Shown: positions 2,200 to 47,454, numbered from the stretch's first letter. The stretch: DNA of 51,470 bases from a virus (IMGVR_UViG_3300026522_000007:1-51470), one strand, 5' to 3'. Notes: generated by a model from the letters alone, not told the origin. A program made the numbers and translations.

Positions 2200-5100
2200 T
2201 TAGAATCCTTCTGCCATATCTTGCTTCGTCTTCTTCATCTGTTTAGCAGCTTCAATTTCATCAATGGCCTTAGGACTATTGAATATGAATGTATCACCAT
2301 TTCCACCAGTGTCTTTGTCCTTCGGATTTGTTCTATCAATATAACCCTCAGAACCACCAGACTTAGTGAATCCATTATAGCCAATATATCCAAGAGTACC
2401 ATCAGAGTTAACAATCACCTGACCAGCTCTAATAAGCATATCAAGCGACTGCATCATGTTGTCAACAGAGTTTCCGATTCTGCTTTCAATGGACTCAAAC
2501 CAAAGTGCAACCTCATTATAAATCGACTTAAGCTTGTCAGCAAATCCAGATACCGTAATACCAGCACCAACTGAAATGTCATCAGTGTCAATATTATCGA
2601 TTCCCTTATTCAGGTCTTTCTGAATTGCTTTCATAGCCGAAGGCATTGCAGCTTCAAAACCTTGAACAATGCCAGGTGGTATCCAACGACCAACCTCATC
2701 TCTGAATACCTTAGACGGAGAACCAATACCAAGAGCATGTTTCACACCATCAACAATACCGGAAAAGAAGTTTCTAACCTGACTGGTAAACCATCCGGCT
2801 GCATTTCTAATACCATTCCAAACACCAGTAACAATATTAGTACCAATCGACATAACTTTGCCTGAGATTCCGCTTGCTGCCGACATGACATTGTTGATAA
2901 GCGATTGAACTGCCTCTCTACCTTTTTGTCCCATTTGAGCAACCCAGGTGACAAGGTTATTTATCGCAATATCGAGATACTGCTTAATTTTTCCCGGCAG
3001 CTGTTGCATAAAACTTACTACATTACTGATGAAGTTAGCGCCCATCTCGCGTGCTTTGCTGGACATATTAGTGGACCACGTTTGCACGTTATTAAAAGCA
3101 CTTGTAATAAACTGCAATACTTTACCAGGAAGCTGAGTGAAGAAACTAACAACATTGTTGATGAAGTTTGTTCCCATCTCTCGAGCTTTATTTACCATGT
3201 TGGTTGCCCAAATCTGAACATTGTTAAACGCATCGGTAATGAATTGTAGTATCTTGTCCGGAAGCTGGGTAAAGAACGACACCACATTATTGAGGAAATT
3301 CGTTCCCATTTCCCTAGCTTTGGCCACCATGTTACCAACCCAAATTACGATGTTGGTCAGTGTATTACCAATAAAATAGCCAACCTTATACGGCAAATTC
3401 GTAAAGAAACTTACGACTGCATTCAGAAAGTTTTGCCCCATTTCGTTTGCTTTGGCAACCATATTGCTTACCCATGTCACGACCGAGTTATACGCATTCG
3501 TAATTAAGTTTGCAATATTCGTAGGAAGCTGAGCAAAGAAATTTATGATAGTCGTAATGAAATTGGACACTGCCATCTTAATGAAACTTATTACATTCGA
3601 GAAGAACGAAGTAATTCCATTCCAAATATCTACAAAGAACTGCTTGATATTTGTCCAAGTCTCATCCCATGTAGTTCCAAACCAGCCTAACACAGTATCA
3701 GCAATTCCTTTGAATACTATAGTCCAAGATTCGAAAGTTCCCTCAATCAAATCCCAAACAGCACCAAATATCTCTTTGACACCTTGCCAAGCTTGGTCCC
3801 AATTACCGGTAAAGATACCGATAAACACATCAAAGATTCCGATCAATGCATCGAGCACCGAGCCAAGAATCACACTTATCTGATTGAATACCCCTTCGAA
3901 TATCGGGGCAAGTAAACTACAGAAGCCGTCCCAAATTGCTTTTACGACCTCACCAAAATTCTCAAAATCAAAACCAAGAGCATTTAGCCTATCGACTATG
4001 CCTTGAGCAAATGATTCGAACTTGGATTTTATACCGTCCCAAATTGCTGTCATCTTGTTTCTGAACTCTTCATTAGTTTTCCACAAGTGTGCAAATGCAG
4101 CAATTAGAACAACAATCACAGCAACCACAGCTACAACCGGAGCAGAAATTCCACCAATAGCAGCGCCAAGCTTTGATGCTTGAGCTGCAAACCCAGGAAA
4201 ACCTGCTCTAGCAAGAGCTATACCCTCACCAATATTCTTAAAGCTAGTAACCATCTTGGTCATTCCTCCGGAAATTGCAGAAACTGCTCCAGGAATTTTA
4301 CCGAATGTAGTAATTATACTACCAACACTCGATGTCAGTTTACCAAGTACAATAAGTACCGGACCAATAGCTGCAACTATTGCTGCTATTTTAATTACTT
4401 GCTGTTTCTCTTCTTCAGACAGACTAGACAACCAATCATTCAGCTTCTGTATTAATGCTACACCCTTCTCAATAAAAGGTAACAACATTTCTTTTAATGT
4501 ATCACCAAGCTGAATCAATGCATTCTTACCATTCTGAAGTGCTACACCCAATTTATGCTGAGTTGTATCAGCCATAGTTTCAAATGCCGATTCTGTATCG
4601 CCTTGTGTTGTCTGAAAATCTTTTAATGTAGAGTTATAATCCTCAGTCTCAGTATTAAGTAACGCCAATGCTGCTTTGCTTGCTTCTTGACTACTCCACA
4701 AATCATTAAAACCTACACCAGTATCATCTGTTTCCTGCTGCAGTATGTCAAGTACATCTCTTAATGATGCACCACTATCCATCAACTCTTGGAAACTCTT
4801 TCCTGTCCTTGCTTTTAATATATCAGATACAGTGGTTCCACTTTTACCAAGTTCATTAAACATACTATTCAAGTATGTAGTAGATTCTGCAGTTCCAATA
4901 CCACCAGCAGTCAAATATGAGTAAGCTGTACCTAAGTCTTCAAGCGATACTCCCATTGCATTTGCAGTAGGAATAACTTTACCCATAGTCTGTGCCAACT
5001 CGTTCACAGTTGTTTTACCTTTGTTCTGTGTACTGATTAACACATCACTAATATGTGTTGCATCATCGGCTGACAAACCATAAGCATTTATAATTGTCGT

Positions 5101-5586
5101 CAACGCATCAACTGCTGTCGTTGTATCTGAAAAACCTGCTGTTGCAAGTTTAGACGCATTTGCTACAAACTGAACTGAACTAGCTGTATCTACACCAGCA
5201 GATATTGCTTGATATGTTGCCTCTGCAATATCTGATGCGGATGCGCCAGTCTCGTTCGATAACTTAACTATTTCAGACTTGATTGAGTCAATTGATTTCT
5301 CAGTTGTATCAGCAATTGTTTCAACTTTTGCCATTGCTGTTTCAAACTGGGTCGAAAATGTAAAAGCTGTCGTTCCAGCTGTTACCAGCGGTACTGTCAA
5401 AATCTTGGTAAGAGTCGAACCTGCAGAAGTCAAGCTCTTACCTGCACTGGAAAGATTGTTTCCAATTTTTGTTGTGATATTCTTACTTGCGGTGTTAGCT
5501 TGACTTTGAGCAGACCGTAAACCTGATAGAAAACCAGAAATATCCAAGTCAAGGTAACCAACAGCAGAACCAACATCAATAGCCAC
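2200..5586 (-). CDS. Tape measure protein
   Basis: About 1128 aa, the longest ORF; Ala/Gly/Ser-rich helical N-terminus, central hydrophobic block, tandem 44-aa repeats; GTG at 5586 sits 8 nt after GGAGG (the track start 5595 has no spacer). Confidence 0.9.
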   Translation of the reverse strand: MAIDVGSAVGYLDLDISGFLSGLRSAQSQANTASKNITTKIGNNLSSAGKSLTSAGSTLTKILTVPLVTAGTTAFTFSTQFETAMAKVETIADTTEKSIDSIKSEIVKLSNETGASASDIAEATYQAISAGVDTASSVQFVANASKLATAGFSDTTTAVDALTTIINAYGLSADDATHISDVLISTQNKGKTTVNELAQTMGKVIPTANAMGVSLEDLGTAYSYLTAGGIGTAESTTYLNSMFNELGKSGTTVSDILKARTGKSFQELMDSGASLRDVLDILQQETDDTGVGFNDLWSSQEASKAALALLNTETEDYNSTLKDFQTTQGDTESAFETMADTTQHKLGVALQNGKNALIQLGDTLKEMLLPFIEKGVALIQKLNDWLSSLSEEEKQQVIKIAAIVAAIGPVLIVLGKLTSSVGSIITTFGKIPGAVSAISGGMTKMVTSFKNIGEGIALARAGFPGFAAQASKLGAAIGGISAPVVAVVAVIVVLIAAFAHLWKTNEEFRNKMTAIWDGIKSKFESFAQGIVDRLNALGFDFENFGEVVKAIWDGFCSLLAPIFEGVFNQISVILGSVLDALIGIFDVFIGIFTGNWDQAWQGVKEIFGAVWDLIEGTFESWTIVFKGIADTVLGWFGTTWDETWTNIKQFFVDIWNGITSFFSNVISFIKMAVSNFITTIINFFAQLPTNIANLITNAYNSVVTWVSNMVAKANEMGQNFLNAVVSFFTNLPYKVGYFIGNTLTNIVIWVGNMVAKAREMGTNFLNNVVSFFTQLPDKILQFITDAFNNVQIWATNMVNKAREMGTNFINNVVSFFTQLPGKVLQFITSAFNNVQTWSTNMSSKAREMGANFISNVVSFMQQLPGKIKQYLDIAINNLVTWVAQMGQKGREAVQSLINNVMSAASGISGKVMSIGTNIVTGVWNGIRNAAGWFTSQVRNFFSGIVDGVKHALGIGSPSKVFRDEVGRWIPPGIVQGFEAAMPSAMKAIQKDLNKGIDNIDTDDISVGAGITVSGFADKLKSIYNEVALWFESIESRIGNSVDNMMQSLDMLIRAGQVIVNSDGTLGYIGYNGFTKSGGSEGYIDRTNPKDKDTGGNGDTFIFNSPKAIDEIEAAKQMKKTKQDMAEGF
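2930..3575 (-). repeat. Tandem 132-bp (44-aa) repeats inside the tape measure gene, about 5 copies
   Basis: Unit boundaries at 3043, 3175, 3307 and 3439 are exactly 132 nt apart; peptide unit NF(L/I)NNVVSFFTQLPxK(I/V)LQFITxAFNNVQxWxTNMVxKAREMGx. Confidence 0.85.
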
Positions 5587-5604
5587 AACTCTCACCTCCC
5601 TTAC

Positions 5605-8629: not shown

Positions 8630-9664
8630 TTATTTTGCATCAGTGTCCAGAATGTAAACCTGGTCAGCAGCTTCAAAGGAAGGCAGACAAATCATAGAAA
8701 CAATAGTCTCAACCTGAACAGGGTCTGCTTTCTGAACAGTAGTAACGGCAACACCGGTATCAGTGATAGATACATTCGCAACAGAACCAGACATGAGGTC
8801 AGATTCAGCAGGAGTAGTACCAAACCAGGTCTTACCAAGGTCACCGTCAGGGAACATGACGAAAGTGTTCTCAGGCATAAACTTAGCAGCTGTGCCAGCT
8901 TCATCCTTGTAACGCTTGTCGTTAACAACAACATCGATTTCAAGCTCGTCCATAATGTACTGGCGAAGCTGCTTATCAGAAATAGCACCAGCACCATTAG
9001 TAAGAACGAAGATTGCTTTCTTAATCTTTTCATTGTTGCGGATGTTTCTCCAAGTCTTGCCATCACACATAGCACGAGTGATAACAGCACCTGTCTCGTC
9101 CTGAATCTTTTCTTTAGCTACTCTGATGTCCTCAATAGGATCAGATGTGTCATGATTAGACCAAGATACAGCCGCATTACCCTTATGAGTTACACCATAG
9201 TCAAAAGTAAAGCTCTGGCCATTTGCAGCCATAGAGATAATACCGGTAGTGAGTGCCATCATACGCATTCTCTCACGAGAAGCGCGAGCACCACGAAGCA
9301 GACGAGTTTCATCGTCAAAAATCTTGTTCATTACTGAATCGATGTAAGCCTGGTTGCCAGTCTCAAGAACAAGATTGAGTTCCTGACGAAGCTCTTCATC
9401 GATATATGTAGACTCTTTGAAGTACGGCATCTCTGCAGTAAGCTTTTCAAAGCCAATACGTGCACGAGGAATTGCATGTACATCAAACGCGGAAGTCTTA
9501 AGCACAACAGGCAGACCTTTACTACCCTTAATCCACTTGAGTGAAATGCCACGCTTCTTGTCATCAGGGAACAGCTCTTCGCAAGGATACGGAGCTTCGT
9601 CCTGAGTGAGCTCTTCCCAATATGCAACGAGTTCAGTGCTCTGCATTAAATCGAAAATAGTCAT
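8630..9664 (-). CDS. Major capsid protein (lambda gpE-like family)
   Basis: 344 aa; GAGGAGG RBS; lies after the scaffold and decoration genes; N-terminal pattern recalls the capsid protein E family. Confidence 0.8.
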   Translation of the reverse strand: MTIFDLMQSTELVAYWEELTQDEAPYPCEELFPDDKKRGISLKWIKGSKGLPVVLKTSAFDVHAIPRARIGFEKLTAEMPYFKESTYIDEELRQELNLVLETGNQAYIDSVMNKIFDDETRLLRGARASRERMRMMALTTGIISMAANGQSFTFDYGVTHKGNAAVSWSNHDTSDPIEDIRVAKEKIQDETGAVITRAMCDGKTWRNIRNNEKIKKAIFVLTNGAGAISDKQLRQYIMDELEIDVVVNDKRYKDEAGTAAKFMPENTFVMFPDGDLGKTWFGTTPAESDLMSGSVANVSITDTGVAVTTVQKADPVQVETIVSMICLPSFEAADQVYILDTDAK

Positions 9665-9687: not shown

Positions 9688-9736
9688 TAGCATCGTCGAC
9701 TGGAATCTATAGATTAGTCAGGTACATTATAATGCC
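9688..9736 (-). repeat. 49-nt imperfect direct repeat, copy B (3' end and downstream untranslated region of the 9727..10110 gene)
   Basis: tagcatcgtcgactggaatct is identical to 9912..9932; the flanks match at about 40/49 overall. Confidence 0.85.
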
Positions 9737-10110
9737 TGATCCCTGATTAGGATGACATGGCCAGTATCCTTAAGATTGAGCAGTTTATCCGCCACATCAC
9801 TGTCAACACGATTGAGATTTACTACACCGAAATACAGTGCTGTACCATTGGCTTTGCCATCAGTCACATCCACATCATGGAGAAGCACTGCATTAGCCGT
9901 CCCCATCTCCGTAGCATCGTCGACTGGAATCTTTCGACTAATCAGGGACATTATAATCGGCGTACCAGCCTTTGCAATCAGTCTGGGCCCTACGGGCACA
10001 CCAAGACTCTCAGGAACGATACAACCGACAGAAGCCTGAAGCTCTACGTTCGCCAGAATCTGTTTTGGTGCAGTATACCGTTCTTTTGTTACACCACTTC
10101 TATTCAGCAT
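9727..10110 (-). CDS. Head decoration-like protein
   Basis: 127 aa between the scaffold and major capsid genes; AAGGAGG RBS; function inferred from position only. Confidence 0.4.
   Translation of the reverse strand: MLNRSGVTKERYTAPKQILANVELQASVGCIVPESLGVPVGPRLIAKAGTPIIMSLISRKIPVDDATEMGTANAVLLHDVDVTDGKANGTALYFGVVNLNRVDSDVADKLLNLKDTGHVILIRDQAL
9912..9960 (-). repeat. 49-nt imperfect direct repeat, copy A (internal to the 9727..10110 gene)
   Basis: Counterpart of 9688..9736, offset by 224 nt. Confidence 0.85.
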
Positions 10111-10129: not shown

Positions 10130-10843
10130 TTATTTGTTGTTGCCCCAGTAGCTGGACTTTTTACCAGTACCACGGCGCTGCGCAGCAAGACGAGCACCGA
10201 AACCTTTTTCTTCACCTTTGACTTCCTTAGAAGTCTTAACAGAAGAACCTGTTCCCTTCTGACCAGTCTTACCTTTTTCTTTGTTTTTTCCACCCTTGTC
10301 ATCGTCTTCGGATTCACCGAACCAAACAGGGTACTTGGTCTTAAACTCACCGATAATAGTTTTCAGGTCAGAATCTTCAGTCATCTTTGCAAGCGCAAGA
10401 GTAACCACATCTTCAACATACTGAGTTTTTACACCCAGCATCATAGCTTCAGCTTTAGCTTCAGCAATCTGAGCTCTCTGCTCAGCTTCGTTCATTTTGG
10501 TCTGATTTTCAGCATCCTTTTCGGCAGCCTTCTGCTCATCAGTCTTCTGACTTTCGATAAGTGCCTTAACCATTGCAACCATCTTGGAGTCCTTAGGGTC
10601 AATACCAAGTTCCTTAAGAGCAGCACTGCGACCCTGATTCTTTTCGCGGGTCATCATCTTATTTACCTGCTCCTGGGTGAAAGTCTTGCCAGACTTGCCC
10701 TTATCGTCTCCACCTTTGTCCTTACCAGATTTATCATCCTTACCGGACTTTCCAGAATCACCCTTGTTGTCGTCCTGGTCCTCAACGTCCTCGTTCTCTT
10801 TAATTTCCTCTTCAGTGAGGTTGTCTTTCTTTTCTTCAGCCAT
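10130..10843 (-). CDS. Scaffolding protein
   Basis: 237 aa, highly charged and helical; FTQEQVNKMMTREKNQ motif typical of DUF4355-type scaffolds; lies upstream of the capsid gene. Confidence 0.75.
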   Translation of the reverse strand: MAEEKKDNLTEEEIKENEDVEDQDDNKGDSGKSGKDDKSGKDKGGDDKGKSGKTFTQEQVNKMMTREKNQGRSAALKELGIDPKDSKMVAMVKALIESQKTDEQKAAEKDAENQTKMNEAEQRAQIAEAKAEAMMLGVKTQYVEDVVTLALAKMTEDSDLKTIIGEFKTKYPVWFGESEDDDKGGKNKEKGKTGQKGTGSSVKTSKEVKGEEKGFGARLAAQRRGTGKKSSYWGNNK

Positions 10844-10880: not shown

Positions 10881-11273
10881 TCATGGTAGATATTTGATCT
10901 CCTTCGAGTTGTTTTCAGACGCTACAAAGGTGAACGTCCCATTGTACTTCGCCAATAATTTCTTGCAGTGATTTTCCAGCCTTTTAGCTTTCTTAAGCAC
11001 CATATTGTTTAGCATCCTCGCAAACTCTACGTTATTGCTACCCTGATTTCTTCGTATTCTCTTTTTTGTTTTCTCGAGGTCCACTTTAAGTTCTTCGTAG
11101 TGTGCATCTTTCAACAACACACGGTAAATCTTATTACACTTTGGACACGTAAAGAATATCAATGATAGCTGTTCATTCTCACATTTTACAGATTGTTCCT
11201 GTATATTTACGGATTCAAGAGGAAACTCATAACCACATTCATCACACACGATTATTGCTTTTTCCTGACTCAT
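10881..11273 (-). CDS. Zinc-ribbon protein, paralogue B
   Basis: 130 aa; CDEC...CPKC pairs then a basic helical tail; start overlaps the stop of paralogue A. Confidence 0.6.
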   Translation of the reverse strand: MSQEKAIIVCDECGYEFPLESVNIQEQSVKCENEQLSLIFFTCPKCNKIYRVLLKDAHYEELKVDLEKTKKRIRRNQGSNNVEFARMLNNMVLKKAKRLENHCKKLLAKYNGTFTFVASENNSKEIKYLP

Positions 11274-11689
11274 ACCGAAAACCTCAGCACAAAGTCAGAA
11301 TCCGTTTCGTTGTCGTGCAGCAACTTACCGGTATATTCTTTCATGAGATTCATCCTGTAGTCAGACAGGTTCTGTCGAGCTTTCTTGAATTTTGCCGATT
11401 GTTTTTGTGGAATTTCTTTGCCCTTTTTCTTTAACACAGCAAGCTTTACAAACTGTCTGGAAACTTCCTTAAGTTTATTAAGCGATGTTGCGTCATCAAT
11501 TTGTACGTAATGGCGTCTGCCACACTTAGGACAATCGTAATATGTGAGAAATATTGATTGCCCATTTACATTGAACTCTTTTTTATGAGTAACTGCATTT
11601 GCTGCATTACCTGCTGTGATTCGAAATTTTTCTTTGCAATCTTCACACTCAACAAGCAATGACATTGTTTCTCTGTCGATTGTACTCAC
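11270..11689 (-). CDS. Zinc-ribbon protein, paralogue A
   Basis: 139 aa from GTG at 11689 (AGGAGG 7 nt upstream); CEDC...CPKC, same layout as 10881..11273. Confidence 0.6.
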   Translation of the reverse strand: MSTIDRETMSLLVECEDCKEKFRITAGNAANAVTHKKEFNVNGQSIFLTYYDCPKCGRRHYVQIDDATSLNKLKEVSRQFVKLAVLKKKGKEIPQKQSAKFKKARQNLSDYRMNLMKEYTGKLLHDNETDSDFVLRFSV

Positions 11690-11738
11690 TTGATTTCCTC
11701 CTTTTCTTGGAAATTGGTCCACATAACCACTTGTTTAT

Positions 11739-11767
11739 ATTATACCACACAAAATTAGATTTGTAAA
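11739..11767 (-). promoter_or_regulatory. Sigma-A-type promoter P1 (TTTACA-17-TGGTATAAT)
   Basis: Minus strand: TTTACA, a 17-nt spacer ending in TGG, then TATAAT; the -35 box and upstream A/T block lie inside the 3' end of the ARH gene. Confidence 0.7.
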
Positions 11768-12567
11768 TAGGAAAATACAAAATTTTTGAACTTTTCCAAA
11801 TAAATTTTGACCTCAGAATCCAGCTGGTCAATCCATCTTTGCGGTATAGCATCATAACCGAATCTTGCTCCTGCAATACTGCCAGTAATAGCAGCTATCG
11901 TGTCTGCATCACCACCATCATTTACGGCACCAATTATGGCTTTTTCAAATGACGGTTTATTTGCCCAATATAATGAATTATTGAATGTATCTCTGATATA
12001 TCCAGAAGGCTCCAGAATTGATTTTACTTTATAGGTATATAAATTATTATATAATATATTCTGAATCAATCTGGTATACTCCAGAATTATCTGGGAACAT
12101 TCTGAATTATTATGGGTTAGTTTACCCTGTGCCACATTCAAATCAGGCCTATTTATCAAAGCACATGGCATAGCTCTCATCAAACTACCATTACCAAGAG
12201 CAGCATCATCTTTTTCAATGAAATGACCTGTTGACATTGCACAAACTATTCCTTTTTGACATTGGCCACCTACATCCTTTGGTCCCATTCTATACCATTC
12301 AATGAAGTTACACATGCAATATTCTTCAAATAATTCAATATTACTCATCAAAGCATCCATAACACAGATAGTCATTTGGGTATCATCAGTCACCTTACCG
12401 GCTTCAAGATTTAGCCAGCCACCACCAATGATGTCGGTCACCTGACCATATTGCTTTTTGATTTGCTCACGATTCATGAACTCAGTGGTTGCACCCATTG
12501 CATCACCAATAGCAAACCCGTATATTGCACCTGCAATCTTATTCTTTATCTTCTTTATCGTACTCAA
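11755..12567 (-). CDS. ADP-ribosylglycohydrolase (DraG/ARH family)
   Basis: GAIYGFAIGDAMGATTEF, DDTQMT, GNGSLMR and GGDADTIAAITGSIAGARFG motifs; TTG at 12567 lies 8 nt after GGAGG (the track start 12594 is also possible). Confidence 0.85.
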   Translation of the reverse strand: MSTIKKIKNKIAGAIYGFAIGDAMGATTEFMNREQIKKQYGQVTDIIGGGWLNLEAGKVTDDTQMTICVMDALMSNIELFEEYCMCNFIEWYRMGPKDVGGQCQKGIVCAMSTGHFIEKDDAALGNGSLMRAMPCALINRPDLNVAQGKLTHNNSECSQIILEYTRLIQNILYNNLYTYKVKSILEPSGYIRDTFNNSLYWANKPSFEKAIIGAVNDGGDADTIAAITGSIAGARFGYDAIPQRWIDQLDSEVKIYLEKFKNFVFSYLQI

Positions 12568-12766
12568 TACACTCACCTCCATCAAGGACTTCATCAGGCT
12601 TTACTTCATACTTGGCACATTTAGATGTGTTGCAAGGCATTCCTTCATCTTTGAAACGATTTCGGCAATCCTTACAAACCAAGTCATCGTTTGTTATCAA
12701 ACCAAAGCTTAGCTTGTCTTTTTGAAACTTCTCATCAATAGCACTTAGATTTTTGTTTGCTGCCAT
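12539..12766 (-). CDS. Small Cys-rich protein
   Basis: 75 aa; AAGGAGG RBS; CKDC...C...C...C; first gene behind promoter P2. Confidence 0.55.
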   Translation of the reverse strand: MAANKNLSAIDEKFQKDKLSFGLITNDDLVCKDCRNRFKDEGMPCNTSKCAKYEVKPDEVLDGGECIEYDKEDKE

Positions 12767-12794
12767 AGTAGCACCTCCTTTTACTTCTGTAAAT

Positions 12795-12823
12795 ATTATA
12801 CCACATCACGATTAATTTGTACA
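12795..12823 (-). promoter_or_regulatory. Sigma-A-type promoter P2 (TGTACA-17-TGGTATAAT)
   Basis: Minus strand: CCTATGTACAAATTAATCGTGATGTGGTATAAT, immediately after the stop of the minor head/ART gene. Confidence 0.75.
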
Positions 12824-12838
12824 TAGGCTTTTGCAAAT

Positions 12839-14821
12839 TTATTTCGGGCCTTTCAAGTTTTTCAAAGTCATGTATATTCGTTTTACGTCACCATAACTAT
12901 CAAACTCAACATCATCAATAATGTATTTGCCTCCCCTATTTATAAGAAGCTCTTTCTCACCACGATTTCGTGATATAGTATCAACATACATTGCTTGGCT
13001 TCCTTTTGGAACCTTTATAACATATTCAATGTCTCTACTAAAACCACCACCAGAAGCAGGGCTCGTTGACATGAATCCTTTGTCGGAAACGATGCCACCA
13101 ACCAACCTGTCCTTATTCGCTTCTGAAATATCAAGACCAAGCTCTTCAAGCATATTATAATCAGAACCACGTCTAACTATTACTTCCTCAGGAAGACTTG
13201 CTTTCTTAAGAGCTGCCGTAGCTTGCTTAATTTCGTCTGCGTATCTTGTGGTCGTCCTTTGACCTCTCAAATATTTATTCATATCGATATAGGCAGAACC
13301 AGTATAAATCTCTACGCCATTTCGTTCTGCAGAAGATATTGCTCTAAGCCAATCATCACACCAAGATTCCATTTCTCTAAGATTATTATTTCGAATAGCT
13401 TGATGCCAAGCAGCAGAATCAAACTGAGCACCAACAGTCTTTGTAGTACTTGCAACCTTCTTGGTAGTCGTTGCAGTCTTCATAACGAAGTTCTTGTCAG
13501 TCAAATGCTGATTGTAGAATTTCATTAGCTGCTGATATGGATGCGGGTCAGACCAGCTTGTTCCCATACTCTTAAGAATTTCGCTTGCTTGTTCATAACT
13601 AACTTTGTGAGACCAATCATCAAAATCATACGGCATCTTGTCCTTGGTAAATCCATACGGCTTAAGATATTTCTCTTGAACATCACTAAATGCCTGAATC
13701 TTTTTCTTTCCACCAAGATTAGAACCATCACCATTGTAGATGTTCTTTTCGTACCATTCATTCCAGGTAAGACCGGACTGGTTCTTAAGAGCTTTAGCTT
13801 CAGCTTTCTGAATCTGTGTCAAACTATTGAACCAAGAAGAAGGTGACTTGGATGACATACCATACTTGGCAATAAAATCCTGAACAGTACCAGTTTTAGA
13901 AGCTTGATAGCCGAAGTTACCAGCAAATGCATCAATTTCAGGATATGTCCCATCAGGACTATTGAACCAGTCTGCAAGCTGGTCAATCATATCATCTGCT
14001 ACAACAGGTTCCATTGTACACATTCCATTCGGGTGGTCCATAGGAAGCTCTGTCTTCTTATAATGAACACCATCACGAGCTTTACATAATTCACACACTC
14101 GGCTTCCATTACTTCTCCAAACGTATTCGGTAATAAATGGATTTTTCTGAGTGGTTGCGATAAAGCTTTGCTGATACCCATGTTGAACTAAAGTCCTTGC
14201 CAATCGTTGAGCATTGTAATCAACCTGCTTTTTGTAGATTTTCTTACCGTCAGCCATTCGTAAATTCCAAGGCAACTTAGCACTTGGTCTTACATAAGAT
14301 TCAAGGTCCTTAGCAATCTCATAAATAGGTTTATTCTCAGCCAGCCCTTTTGCCATAACCTGATAAATGTCTTTGAGTGTTTGTTCATTATCACCCCAGA
14401 TTCTAGAGCTCAAACTCCAACCACTGTCATAGATTTGACCGGTTACCAGATTCTGTACAATTTCATGCGGCACATAACTGAATGCTGCGTTCAAACCATC
14501 AGAAGAAAAGCCGAAGCTCTCTAGCCACTTAACATTATCTGACACAACTGCATCAGCAACAGTGTAAATATTCGACTTAATCTTCTTGTAAACTTCATTG
14601 GAAACTTCCTGACTCGTCTGCCTCAATTGCTTCTGCAATTCTCTGTAATATCGCTCAGACACTGGAGCACTCGCAGTGGATTTGTGAGAGTAGTATTTGG
14701 CTCTCTCACCAATCTCATCTGCCCAATCTTCATAGAGCTTGGCAATCTCTTTTTTTTGGGATGCCATAATAGCATTCCTCGCCTCTTCAGCATTCTTGAA
14801 TATCAGCTTGTTACCTGCCAT
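12839..14821 (-). CDS. Minor head protein (SPP1 gp7 / Mu F-like) fused to a C-terminal ADP-ribosyltransferase toxin domain
   Basis: 660 aa directly after portal; CELCKARDG...HPNGMCTMEP (gp7/Mu F signature); C-terminal YTGSAYIDMNKYLRG, VIVRRG, GFMSTSP and GEKELLINRGG form the R-S-ExE triad of C3/Vip2-type ARTs. Confidence 0.85.
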   Translation of the reverse strand: MAGNKLIFKNAEEARNAIMASQKKEIAKLYEDWADEIGERAKYYSHKSTASAPVSERYYRELQKQLRQTSQEVSNEVYKKIKSNIYTVADAVVSDNVKWLESFGFSSDGLNAAFSYVPHEIVQNLVTGQIYDSGWSLSSRIWGDNEQTLKDIYQVMAKGLAENKPIYEIAKDLESYVRPSAKLPWNLRMADGKKIYKKQVDYNAQRLARTLVQHGYQQSFIATTQKNPFITEYVWRSNGSRVCELCKARDGVHYKKTELPMDHPNGMCTMEPVVADDMIDQLADWFNSPDGTYPEIDAFAGNFGYQASKTGTVQDFIAKYGMSSKSPSSWFNSLTQIQKAEAKALKNQSGLTWNEWYEKNIYNGDGSNLGGKKKIQAFSDVQEKYLKPYGFTKDKMPYDFDDWSHKVSYEQASEILKSMGTSWSDPHPYQQLMKFYNQHLTDKNFVMKTATTTKKVASTTKTVGAQFDSAAWHQAIRNNNLREMESWCDDWLRAISSAERNGVEIYTGSAYIDMNKYLRGQRTTTRYADEIKQATAALKKASLPEEVIVRRGSDYNMLEELGLDISEANKDRLVGGIVSDKGFMSTSPASGGGFSRDIEYVIKVPKGSQAMYVDTISRNRGEKELLINRGGKYIIDDVEFDSYGDVKRIYMTLKNLKGPK

Positions 14822-14838: not shown

Positions 14839-16413
14839 TTATTCTTCAGTCATATCGATTTCTTCAATGTCCTCAACCTTTTCTTCCGGATTGTTATCAC
14901 CAGAAGGATATGGCTCAGTATCGCCACTAACTGCAAATGAGCTTTCCTCAAGCATCTGCCTTTCGAGTGCAATCTGTTCAAGTTCCTCCTGAACCTCATC
15001 ATCAGTAAGACCTCTCCACTTCTTCATATAAGCTTTACGGCTCATAGTCTTAGATTCAACCTCGGACAAGTCCATGTTCTTTTCCTCGATTTCATCCTCA
15101 GGGATAGGAAGGTTACCAACAATAGAAATTTCGTATGCAACAGAACTAATTACATCATTTGTATATTTCTCAATGCAGTTTGGATAAACCATTGCACCTT
15201 GCAGAATGATGTCAACCATATTTCTGAGCTGTGGTCCCCACATCTTCATTTTCTCTTTACACCTTACAATCAGCGGCCAATAAATCGCTTTAAGTGCTTT
15301 GCCACTTGTGATTGTAGCTTGCACCTCCTCAATATCAGGCACGTCAACTTGGTCATAAGCTGATTTCTTTATTCGTTTAAGTGTAATGTCAAGAGAAGAA
15401 CTATAGTTCATACTTGGCTCAAGCAAACCAACTTGCGGATATGCTTTGTCCAAGTTCTGGTCTGAACCCAAATCCCAGAAAGCACCAGCTGCGGTAGAAA
15501 GATTCTTGGTAGAATTTGATTCCATATCCACAGTATACTTAGTAGGATTCATTGATTTTCTCTGAGCATCAATATCTGCATTTGACAACTTACTATACCA
15601 AGATTCTTCATCCTGTAGAGTCTCAATTTCAGATTCACCTTTATCCTCACCAGACAGACCATCATTGATGAAGATACTTACTGGAATCATAGGCATCAGA
15701 GTTTCCTGATATTCAGTCACTTCTTCAATCAGACCTCCAGCACCATCGTACATTGCCTCTTCCAGATACACCACATCATCGACAAGCTCAAACTTCTTTT
15801 TGAAGATTCGTTTCTCACTCAATGTGATGCTGTCCTTTACAATGATAAAGCACACAAACTTAGTTATTATATTCGGATTGCCTATCTTTGTGTCATAGAT
15901 AAACTGTGTAGAGGGGAGGAATGTGATTGTCACCCCATCCTCTTCATTGAAATTTACCAAACCGGCAACTCTCTTACCAATGAAGCAATCTTTAGCTGCT
16001 TTGATAAGAGCTTCTTCAAAGTTATTAGCATCCAAAATCGTTTTAACCAAGTCGTTCATAGTTGTCAATGCATTCTTTGCATCTTCGGTAATCTTACCAA
16101 CATCGCCTTTCGGCTCAACCGTAATGTCAGGTGGCTCAGCAAAGAGGAACCTCGCTTCCTTGTTGATGAGGGAAGCATCCATCTTATAATTAAGCTTGGC
16201 AGGTATATAGTCACCGTTTGTTCCCTCTACCGTAAAACTTGCACCTTTCTTATACACTTTATAGTATTTGCAGATTTGTGTCAGCTCGTCCAATGTGTCC
16301 TTTGCTGCACCTGAAACTTCTGCGTTTATCAATGCATAAGGAATACGGTTGAAAGCTGTCAAGACTTCAGTACTATTCTCGGCCTTAATGACCTTAGCTT
16401 CTTCACTAGCCAT
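14839..16413 (-). CDS. Portal protein (SPP1 gp6-like)
   Basis: 524 aa; AAGGAGG RBS; acidic C-terminus; lies upstream of the gp7-like gene. Confidence 0.8.
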   Translation of the reverse strand: MASEEAKVIKAENSTEVLTAFNRIPYALINAEVSGAAKDTLDELTQICKYYKVYKKGASFTVEGTNGDYIPAKLNYKMDASLINKEARFLFAEPPDITVEPKGDVGKITEDAKNALTTMNDLVKTILDANNFEEALIKAAKDCFIGKRVAGLVNFNEEDGVTITFLPSTQFIYDTKIGNPNIITKFVCFIIVKDSITLSEKRIFKKKFELVDDVVYLEEAMYDGAGGLIEEVTEYQETLMPMIPVSIFINDGLSGEDKGESEIETLQDEESWYSKLSNADIDAQRKSMNPTKYTVDMESNSTKNLSTAAGAFWDLGSDQNLDKAYPQVGLLEPSMNYSSSLDITLKRIKKSAYDQVDVPDIEEVQATITSGKALKAIYWPLIVRCKEKMKMWGPQLRNMVDIILQGAMVYPNCIEKYTNDVISSVAYEISIVGNLPIPEDEIEEKNMDLSEVESKTMSRKAYMKKWRGLTDDEVQEELEQIALERQMLEESSFAVSGDTEPYPSGDNNPEEKVEDIEEIDMTEE

Positions 16414-16427
16414 CTTCCATTACCTCC

Positions 16428-18023
16428 TTATTTTACTCTGAACTTCTGTCCAACGTAAATCAGATTCGGATTAGAAATATTATTCCACTTCACAATCTGA
16501 TTTACAGTAGTTCCATATTCATTGGCAATTTTAGAAAGAGTATCGCCTTTCTTGACTGTGTAATATACAGCAGACGATGAACTCGTTCCTGCACACAACT
16601 CATTTACTTTTGCCTGAACTTTTACGTAGTCGTAGCCGGCATTTGTAAGAGCTGTCTTTCGGGCATCTCCGTTACCCCACTTACCAGCAATGACCTCTTT
16701 TGCAAGTTCATTTACAGATTTCTTAAGTACAGCACTTCCACCACCAAGAATACGATTCACCTCAGCCTGAACTGCGGCATAGTCATAACCAGCTACAGTT
16801 AACGCATTCTTTCTGGCATCACCATTACCCCATGCACCTTGAATAACTTCCTGAGCTACCTCACTAATAGACTTATCAGGGTTAGGCTTAGGAGCAGCAC
16901 CATCAGATGCATACTTAGGACGAGCAAATCCTCTAATATAACCCCATCCTACATTGATAGTTCTTCGTCCAACCCTCTCGCTCATGTTTCCTTCAATACA
17001 AGTAATTGTGTTTCCACTTACCTGCTCAACATAACCAATATGGTCAGACCAACCGTCATTCGGCTGAGAACTATCGTCCCAGTTAAACACGATAATGTCA
17101 CCTGCTTGAGGCTTAATCGAACCATCTTCAATCCAAATGCCTTTCTTCTTAAAGATGTCTACGTGCTTTTCAACACCAACCTCAGTACCAATCAAATCAA
17201 CTGCTCCTGCTTTAATAGCGGCAGCTGATACAGTAGCATCGCACCATTCATCGCTTGGTTTAATAGCATAGCCACGAGCCAATGGTTTATGACTGTTGTA
17301 CACATTCAAAATTTCAATATACTTACCATTCGCTTCGCTATACCCAATCCAACTACGCATTACGTTCAATACATCTTGAGCTGTAACTCCTACTTTAGTG
17401 TCCTCTTTTCCACCATCATTAGAAAGCATGCTCTCTTCATAGAGAGTGTCCATATCAACATTGCCATTGATTCCGCTTACCTTACCTGTGCTACCTGTCT
17501 GCTGAATTACACACTCAACATCAGGGCCACCAGTATAATCTGCCAACCAAAGATTCTTACGATACTCAGAAAGCTGAGCCCAATCGTAATAGTTCTTATA
17601 ATAATCCAGATTCGAATAGATACCGAGTTTCTTACAACCAGCAGCTTTGAGAATGTCAAGGAACTCTTTAGTGTACTGAGTACATAATGCCTTGGTAACC
17701 TTAACACCAGCTTTAGTCCATGTATCATATTCAAGGTCTGCAAAAATCCAGGTATTAGTTGGGTCAAGACCAGCAGCTTTCATATTAGCAATACAAGTAT
17801 TTGCATTCTCAGCGATTGTTGCACCATCTACATAAATGAAATGATACACACCAAGAATAGGAATACCTGCAGCTTTTGCTCCTTTAACATACTCAATGAA
17901 CTGGCCGTCAATAGCTCGTCTATAACCTTCTCTAAAGATGCAGAACTGAATGCCATCAGCTTTTACTTTATTAAAGTCAACTGAGCCTTGCCAATTTGAG
18001 ATGTCGATTCCTTGCTTACCCAT
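16428..18023 (-). CDS. Multidomain endolysin: GH25 muramidase + CHAP + 2x Cpl-7 (CW_7) + LysM
   Basis: N-terminal GIDISNWQG...FCIFREGY (GH25); WCDATVS...GDIIVFNW...HIGYV...IEGN (CHAP); two repeats (AQ/AK)[32 protein letters not shown] (Cpl-7); C-terminal [14 protein letters not shown]...VGQKFRV (LysM). Confidence 0.9.
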
Positions 18024-18334: not shown

Positions 18335-19696
18335 TCAACCAGCTCTACTATTGAAGCCCTTATCTTTAACATCAGCAACTGTCACTGTATCAAGTGCGTA
18401 CCAGATAGCTGAGAAAGAGTGTGGGTCAATATTAAACTCATCATATACTGTATCACCATTCGGCTTTTTTAAGTATGTCAAATCCTTAAGCTCACGTATT
18501 ACATTCTTACACTTAGGGCTACATATTATTTTCTTAAATCGTTTAACTTTTCTTGTATTAGATAAACGACTACCGGCAAACTTATTTCTGCAACCTCTAA
18601 TTTGATACCCATTCTGACGATAATATGTAATCGCTTTAGGGTCCTCATTATCAGCCACTATAACCTTATTCAATCCTTGCTCTTTATATGAATTCAACCT
18701 CTTCTTTAGATTCTGCATTTCATCAATCGTAGCAAACTTATCATCAGTAACATGATTCATATAAATCTCATCCCATATATACAAAATAGACTTCTTTAAA
18801 TCCACACTCATACTGATAACAGCATTATACGATTCCTCAAAACCAAAGTCAAATCCAAAGTACTGAGCACTTGGCCCAAGCTTTGTTACTTCATCCTTAA
18901 ACTTCTTAGCATTATTTGCTACATGGAACTGAGGCAACACTCTTGTACCACTCGGACCAAACCTTCCCCACCTTGCCACTCGATACAATGGATAATCATA
19001 TGTCTTGATTTCTTCTAATCGTTTCTTATAAGCGTCTGGCAAGTAAGGATTGTCGTCCATCACGCTATGATGATAATACACACCGTTGTGAACTAACGTC
19101 CTTTTAGCATATAGTTCTTCATCGTTCAGAATTACGTGTTCTCTTCCTTCTTCGTCTAAACTTACAAAGAAATGTCGATACACCCAATTCTCTTTTCCTA
19201 CCGGATTGCAACTTAAGATGAAATGCATGCTTACGTTTGGAGTACGAATACGACCAAGCATTTCTTTATAACCTTCATACTTGATTTCACTACACTCCTC
19301 AAACCATACAATACTAACACCATTCAAAGACTTTACTTTCTCAGGCTTATCCATTCCTTTGAAGATTATTCTACTTCCGTTTGGAAACTTAAACTCCATT
19401 GGTGATTTCAATGCCCTTACTTTTGTTTTGAATACTCGTCTGTCATCATCCATAGCTAACAAATCCATATCATTTAGGATTTCCTTAAACAGGTCATAAC
19501 ACGATTCAGTCAATGTATCATATACCTCTCTTATTACAAGAACTTTACGCTTTTCTTCTAAACACTTAAGAATGATTTTCAAGGCTACATGATACGACTT
19601 ACCACTACCATATCCACCCAACAATAAGTAAGTCTCATAATACCAATCAAACACAAAGTCGGCAAACCTTTCTGATACCTCCTTTGTAATCTCCAT
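18335..19696 (-). CDS. terL: Terminase large subunit (PBSX/Terminase_3-type)
   Basis: 453 aa; Walker A LLLGGYGSGKS; follows TerS. Confidence 0.9.
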   Translation of the reverse strand: MEITKEVSERFADFVFDWYYETYLLLGGYGSGKSYHVALKIILKCLEEKRKVLVIREVYDTLTESCYDLFKEILNDMDLLAMDDDRRVFKTKVRALKSPMEFKFPNGSRIIFKGMDKPEKVKSLNGVSIVWFEECSEIKYEGYKEMLGRIRTPNVSMHFILSCNPVGKENWVYRHFFVSLDEEGREHVILNDEELYAKRTLVHNGVYYHHSVMDDNPYLPDAYKKRLEEIKTYDYPLYRVARWGRFGPSGTRVLPQFHVANNAKKFKDEVTKLGPSAQYFGFDFGFEESYNAVISMSVDLKKSILYIWDEIYMNHVTDDKFATIDEMQNLKKRLNSYKEQGLNKVIVADNEDPKAITYYRQNGYQIRGCRNKFAGSRLSNTRKVKRFKKIICSPKCKNVIRELKDLTYLKKPNGDTVYDEFNIDPHSFSAIWYALDTVTVADVKDKGFNSRAG

Positions 19697-19698: not shown

Positions 19699-20286
19699 TT
19701 ACTCATCCTCCCAATCATCAGGCCAGTAGTTTAAGTCATCAGGCTCTGGTTTCTCTTTTTTAGATTTACGTTTTTTAACGCCTGTGTTTGCAGAAGCAGC
19801 CCAGTCCTCATCTTCATCAGAATCATTAGCACCTTTACGAATGATATTGACAACTATATTGTTATCTTTATCTTCAGTGTGCATCATGTCTCTATTACGC
19901 TTCCACTGTTCTGGCTTTCTATTATTCAGCCAACACATAATAGCTGTTGGATTTGGTGGAACTTCTTTTTCTGTTTTCTCAACTCTTATAGCTCTGTTTC
20001 CATTCCTATCTGGAGGACTGATTATTGTTTTTATATCTGTTGTTGTATACCCTAATGCTACTTTAAGTAGAGCATTCTCAACTCTGTAATCAACAATCTC
20101 TTTTCCATCCTTAATTGCTTTTTCAATCTCAGGATATGTTTTTCTCCATGCGATGAGTGTCTTCTCAGATACCCCTATCTTTTTAGCAATATCAGACAAA
20201 GTAAAATCTCTTGCCCAACAGCTAAGAAGCTCGAGCTTTTCTTCTTTAAGCCACTCATCTACTTTGCTGCTGTTTATGCGTCCCAT
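19699..20286 (-). CDS. terS: Terminase small subunit
   Basis: 195 aa; N-terminal HTH (LSDIAKKIGVSEKTLIAWRK); acidic tail; directly upstream of terL. Confidence 0.7.
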   Translation of the reverse strand: MGRINSSKVDEWLKEEKLELLSCWARDFTLSDIAKKIGVSEKTLIAWRKTYPEIEKAIKDGKEIVDYRVENALLKVALGYTTTDIKTIISPPDRNGNRAIRVEKTEKEVPPNPTAIMCWLNNRKPEQWKRNRDMMHTEDKDNNIVVNIIRKGANDSDEDEDWAASANTGVKKRKSKKEKPEPDDLNYWPDDWEDE

Positions 20287-23590: not shown

Positions 23591-23644
23591 TTTACCTTTT
23601 CCATCTCCTAGACATTTTATTTGGTTTGTTATTTGCTTGATTAA

Positions 23645-23673
23645 ATTATACCATAATCAAATAGGTTTGTACA
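23645..23673 (-). promoter_or_regulatory. Sigma-A-type promoter P3 (TGTACA-17-TGGTATAAT)
   Basis: Minus strand: GGGTGTACAAACCTATTTGATTATGGTATAAT, with an AAAAACTTTTAAG block upstream. Confidence 0.75.
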
Positions 23674-32088: not shown

Positions 32089-32156
32089 AATGTTTTTCTC
32101 CTTTTCAACTGAAAACTTTGTGATTTGTTCGTAGGCTTTATGTACCTTATGATATT

Positions 32157-32185
32157 ATAATACCACATAAATAGGAGTTTGTACA
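32157..32185 (-). promoter_or_regulatory. Sigma-A-type promoter P5 (TGTACA-17-TGGTATTAT)
   Basis: Minus strand: GAAAAACTTTTGCAAAAAGTGTGTACAAACTCCTATTTATGTGGTATTATAAT. Confidence 0.75.
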
Positions 32186-33763: not shown

Positions 33764-33814
33764 CTTTGTTTCCTCCTCTAAGGATTTGTGTGTTATACCT
33801 TAACCACTATAATT

Positions 33815-33843
33815 ATTATACCACAAGGATTTTGATTTGTACA
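33815..33843 (-). promoter_or_regulatory. Sigma-A-type promoter P6 (TGTACA-17-TGGTATAAT)
   Basis: Minus strand: GGATATGTACAAATCAAAATCCTTGTGGTATAAT. Confidence 0.75.
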
Positions 33844-35774: not shown

Positions 35775-36236
35775 TTACAAACATACATCTCCACTCCTAT
35801 TTACTACACGAACAATACCTGCATTCTTAAGCATTCGTGAGCAAATACCACAAGGAACTGGATTCTTATCCTCATGGAAGTCAATAATTTCTTCGTCCCA
35901 TAAATCGGACTTTGCTTTATCCAATCCGTATTCTTCACATGCCAAATAAACCGTAGCACCAATCAATCGTTCTCGACTTGTAGCAATCAGTGCATTCTGT
36001 TCTGCATGAACACTATCACAACTTTCGTATCCTGAATACCTCTCAGCATTTGCTCTTTTGCATGTGCCTCTGTCACAACAGTTTTCTTCGCCTCTTGGAC
36101 TACCATTGTAACCAGTAGCAATGATAATGTCATCCTTAACAATAACACAACCATAATGGCGTTTGAGACATGTGCTTCGTTTGGAAACTGCAAGGGCTAT
36201 GCCAAGATAATACTCGTCCTTTGTTATTCTTGCCAT
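35775..36236 (-). CDS. dCMP deaminase (ComEB/cytidylate deaminase family)
   Basis: 153 aa; VHAEQNAL and PCGICSRML zinc-binding motifs. Confidence 0.85.
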   Translation of the reverse strand: MARITKDEYYLGIALAVSKRSTCLKRHYGCVIVKDDIIIATGYNGSPRGEENCCDRGTCKRANAERYSGYESCDSVHAEQNALIATSRERLIGATVYLACEEYGLDKAKSDLWDEEIIDFHEDKNPVPCGICSRMLKNAGIVRVVNRSGDVCL

Positions 36237-37870: not shown

Positions 37871-37927
37871 TTTTCGTTCCTCCAAACACTCATAAAATTT
37901 AGGATGTATTATTTATCCTCTGATTAT

Positions 37928-37956
37928 ATTATACCATATTGACCAAAGGTTGTACA
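37928..37956 (-). promoter_or_regulatory. Sigma-A-type promoter P7 (TGTACA-17-TGGTATAAT)
   Basis: Minus strand: GGGGTGTACAACCTTTGGTCAATATGGTATAAT. Confidence 0.75.
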
Positions 37957-40671: not shown

Positions 40672-41389
40672 TTGCAATTCTCCTTTTCTTACATATCATC
40701 AATATCTGACGATTGGCTTGAGTAGGGGACAAACAAGCAATTGTTGCTCTTACATAACTTTCAGGAAATGCACCTCTGAGTTTTGAAGCAATCATACTCA
40801 AATTAACATCAGTTTCTAAAAGCTTATTATATTCTCGTTCTTCAAGGCTCCAACCAATCTCCTTATTGATTTTGAATTCCTTGTTTATTATACCATAAAT
40901 CTCAGAATTTGTAAACTCTTCTTTATGGTCAGTTGGCCACACTCTATCTTCATACATTCCTTCGTATGGAGGAGTAGGAGTCGTGAACAACAACATCCCT
41001 TCTGGCACCAACCAGCTTGCAATTCGTTCAAACATTGTCGATGCAAATTCTTTGTCGAGGTGCTCAATAACTTCCATGAACACAACAGCATTAAACGGAC
41101 CAAGCGTATTACACAATAAGTGACATCTTATAGACGTAATATCAATGACGGTAATCTTTTCATCAGATTCGTATCGAGTATCTCCGTCCATCTTATAAAA
41201 ACAAATGTCTTCTCTTTTGAAATTCTTCTTTACTACGTTTTCTAAATCACTCGAGCCTGCACCAAGCTCTAACACCCTTGAATCTACAGGCAGCTGGGCG
41301 ATTTGCCCAGCCACCATAAGAATCCTATTGAAGTTTGAGAAGCTCCAGTGCAAGTTGTAATCGCATTCAGAGAATTTGTCGAATCCCAT
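40646..41389 (-). CDS. Class I SAM-dependent methyltransferase (small-molecule type)
   Basis: About 247 aa; motif I VLELGAGSSD; post-I and II blocks VVFMEVIEHL and LVPEGMLLFTTP. Confidence 0.65.
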   Translation of the reverse strand: MGFDKFSECDYNLHWSFSNFNRILMVAGQIAQLPVDSRVLELGAGSSDLENVVKKNFKREDICFYKMDGDTRYESDEKITVIDITSIRCHLLCNTLGPFNAVVFMEVIEHLDKEFASTMFERIASWLVPEGMLLFTTPTPPYEGMYEDRVWPTDHKEEFTNSEIYGIINKEFKINKEIGWSLEEREYNKLLETDVNLSMIASKLRGAFPESYVRATIACLSPTQANRQILMICKKRRIANGRLAQTR

Positions 41390-43265: not shown

Positions 43266-43275
43266 TATGGATTCT

Positions 43276-47415: not shown

Positions 47416-47454
47416 TGTTTTGCCCTCCTAAGCATTTGTTTTGTTTGTGATTTT

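Follow-up and report, generated by a model that had tools for sequence, protein, structure and literature searches.

A 51,470-nt stretch of viral DNA (IMGVR_UViG_3300026522_000007:1-51470; this whole stretch is referred to as the window) carries a three-gene cassette in its head-morphogenesis operon: a 660-residue minor head protein fused to an ADP-ribosyltransferase (ART) domain, a 75-residue protein with four conserved cysteines (Cys4), and an ADP-ribosyl hydrolase. With a probability of about 0.7, the three genes make up a MuF polymorphic-toxin cassette, in which an ART is combined with a small ART-specific inhibitor and a generic hydrolase of arginine-linked ADP-ribose. The phage that carries it is apparently an abundant, virulent siphophage of gut Clostridia/Lachnospiraceae. 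Every gene of the 51.5-kb window is encoded on the minus strand, and the cassette with its two promoter-like sites is laid out as follows.

12839-14821, minus strand: open reading frame (ORF) of the 660-residue fusion, 17 nt downstream of the portal gene
13907-14821, minus strand: N-terminal head-morphogenesis domain (MuF/gp7-like, divergent), residues 1-305
13382-13906, minus strand: middle or linker region of the fusion, residues 306-480
12842-13381, minus strand: C-terminal C3/Vip2-type (R-S-ExE) ART domain, residues 481-660; stop codon at 12839-12841
12795-12823, minus strand: sigma-70/sigma-A-type promoter-like site, TGTACA-17-TATAAT with TG, between the ART stop and the 75-residue gene
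12539-12766, minus strand: small Cys4 gene of 75 residues, between ART and hydrolase
11755-12594, minus strand: longest ORF of the hydrolase, from ATG 12594
11755-12567, minus strand: DraG/Tri1-type ADP-ribosyl-(arginine) hydrolase, 270 residues from TTG
11739-11767, minus strand: second promoter-like site, TTTACA-17-TATAAT with TG, 11/12 matches, at the hydrolase stop

The C-terminal domain of the fusion is, by profile and structure-database matches, a C3/Vip2-type R-S-ExE ART with its catalytic residues intact, and it would be expected to be enzymatically active. PF03496 (ADPrib_exo_Tox) matches residues 489-657 with E 2.9e-31 and 108.8 bits (cut-off 23.4), and the match spans positions 10-195 of the 196 in the profile. 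Solved structures matched include Lmo0066 (8za7_B, 9.5e-22) and Vip2 (1qs2, 5e-14) and further C3larvin, Plx2A, C3, iota-Ia and CdtA; the match to the Alt-like phrog_802 is weak (E 9.6e-5). R551 (13169-13171), S585-T586-S587 (13061-13069) and E622-K-E624 (12950-12958), all with verified codons, are in register with Vip2 (...VYRW, YMSTS, EKEILL) and with Lmo0066, and the catalytic R / STS / ExE set is invariant across 25 relatives. The C3/Vip2-type catalytic set that an earlier reading of the DNA had proposed (the sequence-only reading) is thereby borne out. So is its account of a 660-residue protein after the portal, whose quoted motifs all lie on the minus strand where it had placed them: CELCKARDG at residues 243-251, HPNGMCTMEP at 263-272 and the remainder at 506-520, 547-552, 582-588 and 621-631. 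An ExE motif is typical of arginine-modifying ARTs (PMC8120803). Arginine would be the modified residue here as well, since the ExE motif of the ART and the DraG/Tri1-type hydrolase agree (PMC8120803).

The N-terminal domain is MuF-like as judged from PHROG clusters, the motif region and synteny behind an SPP1-type portal, to which a MuF/gp7-type protein would be expected to dock. It matches phrog_1657 'head morphogenesis' (E 2.5e-52, residues 11-290) and phrog_115 'minor head protein' (2.3e-22). Short homologues of 310-322 residues, annotated 'minor capsid protein', occupy the same slot in Clostridium phage CS266P1 (from human faeces) and Dulem virus 36, the nearest cultured relatives. Both retain the order lysin-portal-MuF-zinc-ribbon-scaffold-capsid, with a short MuF protein and with no ART, small gene or hydrolase. 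The linker has no Pfam family match and contains a unit KYGxSxKSP...QKAEAKxLK...GLTWNEWY whose copy number differs between strains. The linker of relative P0052 has two copies of this unit, and those of P0021 and P0044 are 79-84 residues longer via other insertions in the same region.

The hydrolase is a DraG/ADP-ribosylhydrolase (ARH)-family protein whose catalytic residues are intact by alignment, in agreement with the sequence-only reading, which had described such an enzyme two genes downstream of the fusion. Translation probably starts at TTG 12567, to judge from a GGAGG 8 nt upstream and from the N-terminus of the family. PF03747 matches with E 1.1e-50 and 173 bits (cut-off 26.2), and scores against two equivalog models lie below their cut-offs: TIGR02662 (2.4e-55, 187.8 bits < 337) and NF041672, the Tri1 model (3.7e-38, 131.2 bits < 490). 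The NF041672 alignment begins at position 64 of 361, and the hydrolase is without the N-terminal extension of Tri1. Matches in the PDB are DraG (2woc, 1.2e-40), Tri1 (6dre, 8.9e-30) and Lmo0067 (8za7_A, 1.4e-27). The ART and the hydrolase thus match chains B and A of one deposited ART:ARH entry, 8za7. Numbered from the TTG, Glu29 (12481-12483), Asp61/62 (12382-12387), Asp98 (12274-12276) and GGDADT (residues 218-223, 11899-11916) align with the catalytic and metal residues of DraG 2woc (E28, D60, D97 and GGDxDT, as listed in PMC8120803), and the D97N mutant entry 2woe departs from 2woc at precisely the column of Asp98. Outside the phage family, a hydrolase 56% identical to that of the window was seen in a Parvimonas metagenome-assembled genome (MAG; CABRGI010000001.1, locus L086, 7004-7768). 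Its surroundings resemble a type I restriction-modification operon (hsdM, hsdS, hydrolase, hsdR, from N-terminal sequences and ORF sizes only), an arrangement that would suggest a host-side defence use of the enzyme.

Between the two enzymes lies the 75-residue gene, which the sequence-only reading had passed over and which accompanies the ART more consistently than any other gene. Searches with its product against Pfam, PHROG, NCBIfam and PADLOC gave no match. Its family comprises 178 matches among 5.8 billion proteins searched, all unnamed, in which C31, C34, C50, C66, K56 and P57 are invariant. The family is found only beside head-protein-fused ARTs, directly after the ART where the hydrolase is absent, and independent gene calls elsewhere give the same order of a PF03496 protein, the small gene and a PF03747 protein. 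The 3' end of the gene overlaps the hydrolase start (TTG 12567) by 29 nt, and because of this overlap the two genes form one unit. From its distribution and co-variation the protein is most likely an ART-specific partner, a candidate binding inhibitor or immunity protein. Since the hydrolase is without the Tri1 extension that occludes the toxin, this ART-inhibiting occlusion may be delegated to the 75-residue protein.

Metagenomes contain more than 120 clusters of relatives of the fusion at 86-96% identity. Many of these lie on ~51-kb contigs, labelled 'Lachnospiraceae bacterium' or 'Caudoviricetes sp.' at most, and the phage family is abundant in gut-type metagenomes. Two surveys of related loci were carried out. 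The hydrolase-seeded survey was alignment-based and took 150 diverse hydrolase relatives to 159 loci, of which 51 belong to the window's phage family; a single-protein locus search had given only 3 near-identical loci. Domains of neighbouring genes were tabulated with an E-value filter. In 50 of the 51 family loci an ART on a MuF protein lies just upstream by hidden Markov model (HMM) search, and the remaining one (L030) has R/ST/ExE-like motifs by eye and no model match. A homologue of the 75-residue protein was found by HMM in 40 of the 51, and nine more have, in the same slot, a divergent form that keeps the same four cysteines. The MuF-seeded survey, which is unbiased as to the hydrolase, covered 68 complete loci, of which 31 have neither ART nor hydrolase. 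The other 37 all have an ART, together with the hydrolase in 28 and by itself in 9, and 0 loci have the hydrolase alone. The small Cys4 gene is kept in 7 of the 9 ART-only loci.

The composition of these loci has further features of polymorphic toxins. Within the head module the ART diverges most: its median identity to the window is 32%, while the medians of the hydrolase, MuF, portal and capsid protein are 47%, 53%, 63% and 74%. MuF domains that are 54-96% identical nevertheless carry other C-termini, including HExxH-type (L171, L247, L196), unknown (L183, L224) or other ART ones, or none. The trio of ART, small gene and hydrolase also stands behind different carrier proteins in L044, L045 and L099. 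As judged by sequence, the cassette behaves as a MuF polymorphic toxin, having a constant N-terminal domain, interchangeable C-termini and a small downstream ORF that co-varies with the toxin.

Individual loci gave additional observations. The HExxH C-termini are metallopeptidase-like with a weak match to anthrax lethal factor, and L197 and L232 have weakly ART-like C-termini, possibly with QxE; L171, L247, L196, L183, L224, L197 and L232 are all without a hydrolase at the locus. In L099 (2364-6536, a Ruminococcus MAG) a 1386-residue protein has a different MuF-type domain and two ART-like domains, and is followed by a Cys4 gene and a hydrolase. In L072 (1338-3773 and 5483-6796) a prohead-protease-like N-terminus is joined to an ART, and a second ART is followed by the hydrolase.

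Co-variation of the cassette proteins was assessed by a Mantel test on all-against-all identities from 44 dereplicated loci. In these correlations, which are uncorrected for shared ancestry, the small protein goes closely with the ART (rho 0.83) and only loosely with the hydrolase (rho 0.22); the hydrolase varies with the MuF backbone (rho 0.62) and hardly with the ART (rho 0.15). Adjacency cannot explain this large contrast, because the small gene touches both of its neighbours. An association of the small protein with the hydrolase, taken from identities to the window alone, was rejected after this analysis.

These values also bear on what the small protein does. It could instead serve the hydrolase, as its cofactor or regulator, or regulate the cassette as a small protein that binds DNA or RNA. 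The overlap of its gene with the hydrolase start suggests translational coupling, the four invariant cysteines suggest a zinc ribbon of the kind often seen in proteins that bind nucleic acids, and in L008 and L017 the identity of the small protein is nearer to that of the hydrolase than to that of the ART. Such a role is nevertheless unlikely given that over the 44 loci the protein co-varies with the ART and hardly with the hydrolase, that it stays beside the ART where there is no hydrolase, and that loci which pair a hydrolase with another class of ART have another small protein (L013) or a Cys4 protein of a divergent class. A binding inhibitor of the ART is the better account of this gene.

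The 12795-12823 site is followed by an AAGGAGG ribosome-binding site and the ATG of the 75-residue ORF. A -35/-10 pair with correct spacing is present upstream of the small gene in 28 of 48 distinct related loci, compared to 5.4 in shuffled sequences (maximum 12). A separate promoter for the small gene and hydrolase is supported, because the site is kept in this many loci. The sequence-only reading had put the hydrolase behind its own promoter; a separate promoter is upheld, and the site fronts the 75-residue gene rather than the hydrolase itself. No terminator-like site was found after the ART gene on the minus strand, and read-through from the late operon is therefore also possible. The second site, 11739-11767, precedes the zinc-ribbon genes and bounds the cassette. 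The two sites share the exact 13-mer TGTGGTATAATAT, which occurs only twice in the window (12793-12805 and 11737-11749). An extended -10 motif of the form T[G/A]TGGTATAAT-like has 10 matches in the window at no more than 2 mismatches, all on the coding strand, compared to 1.7 expected. Most copies precede genes of the replication region, with 40-70 nt between motif and gene start, and the ten are probably the phage's set of promoters for host RNA polymerase:

11737-11749, minus strand: extended -10 motif, at the hydrolase stop
12793-12805, minus strand: extended -10 motif, upstream of the small Cys4 gene
16477-16489, minus strand: extended -10 motif
23643-23655, minus strand: extended -10 motif
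32155-32167, minus strand: extended -10 motif
33813-33825, minus strand: extended -10 motif
37926-37938, minus strand: extended -10 motif
40885-40897, minus strand: extended -10 motif
43423-43435, minus strand: extended -10 motif
47453-47465, minus strand: extended -10 motif

A host-type promoter of its own could also be expected if the hydrolase served mainly in counter-defence, erasing ADP-ribosylation that anti-phage ARTs of the host, or toxins from competing elements, put on phage or host proteins, with its position next to the ART incidental or secondary. Hydrolases 45-56% identical to that of the window occur alone in other phages, among the early or replication genes of L042 and L047, and one stands in the bacterial restriction-modification operon of L086. 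The hydrolase tracks the backbone and not the ART, and stand-alone ARG/ARH domains have been discussed in the setting of ADP-ribosylation conflicts (PMC9503650). Within the phage family, however, the hydrolase is present in 0 of 31 ART-negative loci and in 28 of 37 ART-positive loci. Toxin-less relatives are without it, the pairing of ART and hydrolase recurs on unrelated carriers, and the homologous pairing of the Bxa prophage serves self-immunity, as experiments have shown (PMC11699363). An enzymatic immunity protein, moreover, would itself be expected to look like a generic eraser that follows the backbone. Counter-defence as the main role is accordingly quite improbable, and the hydrolase is better placed as the enzymatic antidote of the toxin cassette.

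As such a cassette, the locus could work in the following way. The minor head protein would carry the linker and an arginine-type ART at its C-terminus. The fusion would be made late, and its ART would be kept harmless by the small protein and the hydrolase for as long as the fusion is in the cytoplasm. The MuF domain would bring the fusion into the prohead. The fusion would then exit with the DNA and ADP-ribosylate host proteins of the next cell, where the promoter-driven unit of small protein and hydrolase would limit or reverse ART activity, the hydrolase removing ADP-ribose from arginine whichever ART variant had attached it. Portal-mediated packaging, ejection with the DNA and an early switch-off are put forward by analogy with SPP1 gp7 and T4 Alt, and the unit would presumably be early in timing. 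Packaging, ejection, host targets, timing, binding of the small protein to the ART and enzymatic activity are what we infer from the genes. Confinement or reversal of the ART reaction by the hydrolase, or protection of the producing cell, had been among the roles suggested by the sequence-only reading and agrees with this account.

In a strictly virulent phage immunity genes could not serve competition between lysogens and non-lysogens, and the cassette could instead be a timed takeover circuit of writer and eraser, in which the head-borne ART acts first and the hydrolase and an inhibitor from the hitherto undescribed Cys4 family then switch it off. The ART would modify host proteins in the first minutes of infection, the operon behind the host-type promoter would turn the ART off, and the hydrolase would wipe the marks, leaving an unmodified cell for late phage development. 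With a generic eraser the ART would be free to diversify, and its greater variability than the rest of the head module would be accounted for. This more specific scheme is tentative and, on balance, doubtful.

Delivery by the virion is itself open to an alternative. The ART might act in the producing cell, or be released at lysis as a Bxa-like fitness factor that acts on other cells, animal cells among them, and both downstream genes would then only protect the producer until lysis. Bxa has been described as acting on epithelial cells after release, with its immunity proteins protecting the producer (PMC11699363), injection of a MuF toxin has never been shown (PMC10083569), and the phage family is abundant in gut-type metagenomes. 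On the other hand, no lysogeny genes were detected, leaving no obvious carrier cell for a factor that benefits its host. The fusion to a portal-associated head protein is kept across several carrier types, including one with a prohead-protease-like N-terminus, which points to the capsid. Pfam scans of the fusion gave neither a signal peptide nor a domain for targeting eukaryotes. Pfam and PHROG scans of the head module found a scaffold and no prohead protease gene that could free the ART, so the ART probably stays fused. An ART that is not delivered by the virion is rather improbable, and a capsid-borne toxin remains the preferred reading.

Several points weigh against the toxin-cassette reading. 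The SPP1 gp7/Mu F signature seen by the sequence-only reading stands as a head-protein assignment, on PHROG matches and synteny, but not at family thresholds or by comparison with gp7: over residues ~170-264 the N-terminal domain scores 17.8 bits against PF04233 (E 0.0059, cut-off 29.6) and 31.6 bits against TIGR01641 (E 1.7e-7, cut-off 39.65), BLASTP against SPP1 gp7 gives E 0.015 and hhalign is not significant. Of the profile searches which that reading had proposed, ADPrib_exo_Tox and ADP_ribosyl_GH were thus positive and Phage_Mu_F fell below its curated threshold; no solved MuF structure was found by sequence for the domain. AlphaFold2 models are of low confidence both for the full fusion (pLDDT 44.6, from a shallow alignment at 86-96% identity) and for the 75-residue protein (pLDDT 47.5, from 51 sequences). 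Co-variation of the small protein with the ART, besides being uncorrected for shared ancestry, is not absolute, because in the very close relatives L008 and L017 the ARTs are 62-65% identical and the small proteins 86-97%. The hydrolase family is not tied to the ART, since homologues stand alone elsewhere. MuF toxins have been described as restricted to temperate phages (PMC5576092, PMC12226406), and no integrase or repressor was found here; the rationale of kin competition for immunity genes is therefore not directly transferable. Packaging and ejection are undemonstrated for any MuF toxin, and injection has been listed as an open question (PMC10083569).

The remainder of the head module follows a conserved order around the cassette.

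19699-20286, minus strand: terminase small subunit
18335-19696, minus strand: terminase large subunit
16428-18023, minus strand: endolysin with GH25, CHAP, two CW_7 repeats and LysM
14839-16413, minus strand: SPP1-type portal (PF05133 SPP1_portal, E 2.6e-18; phrog_64, E 8.2e-31)
11270-11722 and 10881-11273, minus strand: two paralogous CpXC-like zinc-ribbon genes (phrog_1315)
10130-10843, minus strand: scaffold
9727-10110, minus strand: decoration-like protein
8630-9664, minus strand: major capsid protein

The endolysin gene sits between the terminase and portal genes, and the same odd placement of a lysis gene is seen in CS266P1 and Dulem virus 36. The zinc-ribbon pair stands between the cassette and the scaffold gene, behind its own promoter-like site. 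It was considered as a source of extra immunity genes (10881-11722) and rejected, as CS266P1 and ART-negative loci keep homologues. A PADLOC search with five proteins of the cassette and its neighbourhood gave no defence-system match, and only a chance-level TniQ match for one zinc-ribbon protein.

The phage is apparently virulent and non-integrating, as judged from its gene content. No integrase or repressor families were found among the 30 larger ORFs scanned plus the head and lysis genes, the scan taking in every minus-strand ORF >260 residues except the 1131-residue ORF at 2200-5595, which is presumed from its size and position to be the tape measure. The phage encodes its own DNA polymerase, primase and recombinase, and its relatives are ~51-kb stand-alone contigs. 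A DNA search of the region gave no match among cultured phages, relatives being found only at the protein level. A nucleotide-metabolism cluster on the minus strand (35775-36236, 41406-41849, 42768-43319, 43276-43749 and 43818-44255) includes genes for dCMP deaminase, thymidylate-kinase-like, dATPase-like, nucleoside deoxyribosyltransferase and NTP pyrophosphohydrolase proteins, and adjoins the genes for DNA polymerase, primase, UvsX-like recombinase and Cas4-like exonuclease.

Read as a toxin cassette, the locus would add an abundant, apparently lytic phage family of gut Bacillota to the few known MuF-ART toxins with both enzymatic and binding antidotes. The Cys4 mini-protein family, a constant and co-varying partner of the ART, is a candidate for a new class of ART inhibitor. 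The hydrolase appears as an optional, backbone-linked eraser that is never at a MuF locus without an ART (68 loci), and the antidote genes lie behind a conserved host-type promoter within a late operon.

T4 Alt is packaged in the phage head; it reaches the capsid via its own targeting sequence and not as a MuF fusion, and we know of no T4-encoded hydrolase partner for it. The window fusion shares the R-S-E type of ART with Alt, and the sequence similarity is marginal (phrog_802). Arginines of host proteins are modified by Alt immediately after infection (PMC8120803). In Tre1-Tri1 of Serratia proteamaculans a type VI secretion ART effector is paired with a DraG-like immunity protein; DraG and Tri1 act on protein arginine-ADP-ribose, and Tri1 unites active-site occlusion, through its N-terminal extension, and hydrolysis in one protein (PMC8120803). 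Like the window, Tre1-Tri1 and Listeria Lmo0066-Lmo0067 (PDB 8za7) combine an R-S-E ART with a DraG-like hydrolase, and the window proteins match the corresponding chains. Unlike Tre1-Tri1, delivery would be by a phage capsid and not by a secretion system, and the hydrolase lacks the Tri1 extension.

Fusions of toxins to MuF are a family of polymorphic toxins defined in 2017 (Jamet et al., BMC Biol), with ARTs in 14% of 191 and the EFV toxin as one example (PMC5576092), and Alt/VIP2 ARTs fused to MuF have been presented as effectors packaged in the head (PMC9503650). SEA-PHAGES routinely uses the annotation 'MuF-like minor capsid & VIP2-like ADP-ribosyltransferase toxin', and many cultured actinobacteriophages have a fusion annotated in this way. 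The constant N-terminal domain, swapped toxins and small putative immunity ORFs of MuF polymorphic toxins (PMC5576092; EFV toxin of Enterococcus faecalis V583; Apk2, PMC10083569, PMC12226406) are seen in the window and its relatives too, whereas the window and its ~51-kb relatives look free and non-integrating, and the N-terminal domain lies below the PF04233 threshold. Apk2/Aph1/Tis1 is a MuF toxin with one enzymatic and one binding immunity protein; the binding protein is constant and the hydrolase variable (PMC10083569), the same pattern as at loci related to the window.

The closest parallel is Bxa (MuF-ART), BAH (hydrolase immunity, BACSTE_RS09445) and Bsi (small binding immunity, BACSTE_RS09450) of the Bacteroides stercoris prophage PhiBxa, tested in 2024 by Alexei et al. 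(J Biol Chem; PMC11699363); hydrolase genes beside Bxa-like genes have been noted in several gut species (PMC10083569). The sequence-only reading had held that a virion-borne writer next to an eraser was not a characterised phage module. That claim falls, as Bxa/BAH/Bsi has been tested (PMC11699363) and MuF-toxin fusions are a named family (PMC5576092). As in the window, Bxa has a MuF N-terminal domain, a middle region and a C-terminal arginine ART within a head-morphogenesis region, with an adjacent ADP-ribosyl hydrolase, which in Bxa reverses the modification, and a small protein, which in Bxa is the non-enzymatic, toxin-blocking Bsi; further small ORFs lie nearby. The window differs in belonging to a phage of Bacillota and not of Bacteroidota, with a different MuF lineage and no lysogeny genes found, and is known from its genes alone; the authors of the Bxa study compared BAH to ARH1, whereas the window hydrolase scores best against DraG and Tri1. 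The three-part arrangement is thus already described, and what is new here is the Bacillota lineage, the apparent lack of lysogeny genes, the Cys4 family and the conserved internal promoter. Together with the optional nature of the eraser, the Cys4 partner and the internal promoter go beyond the published Bacteroides case and would allow injection of a MuF toxin followed by its switch-off to be tested.

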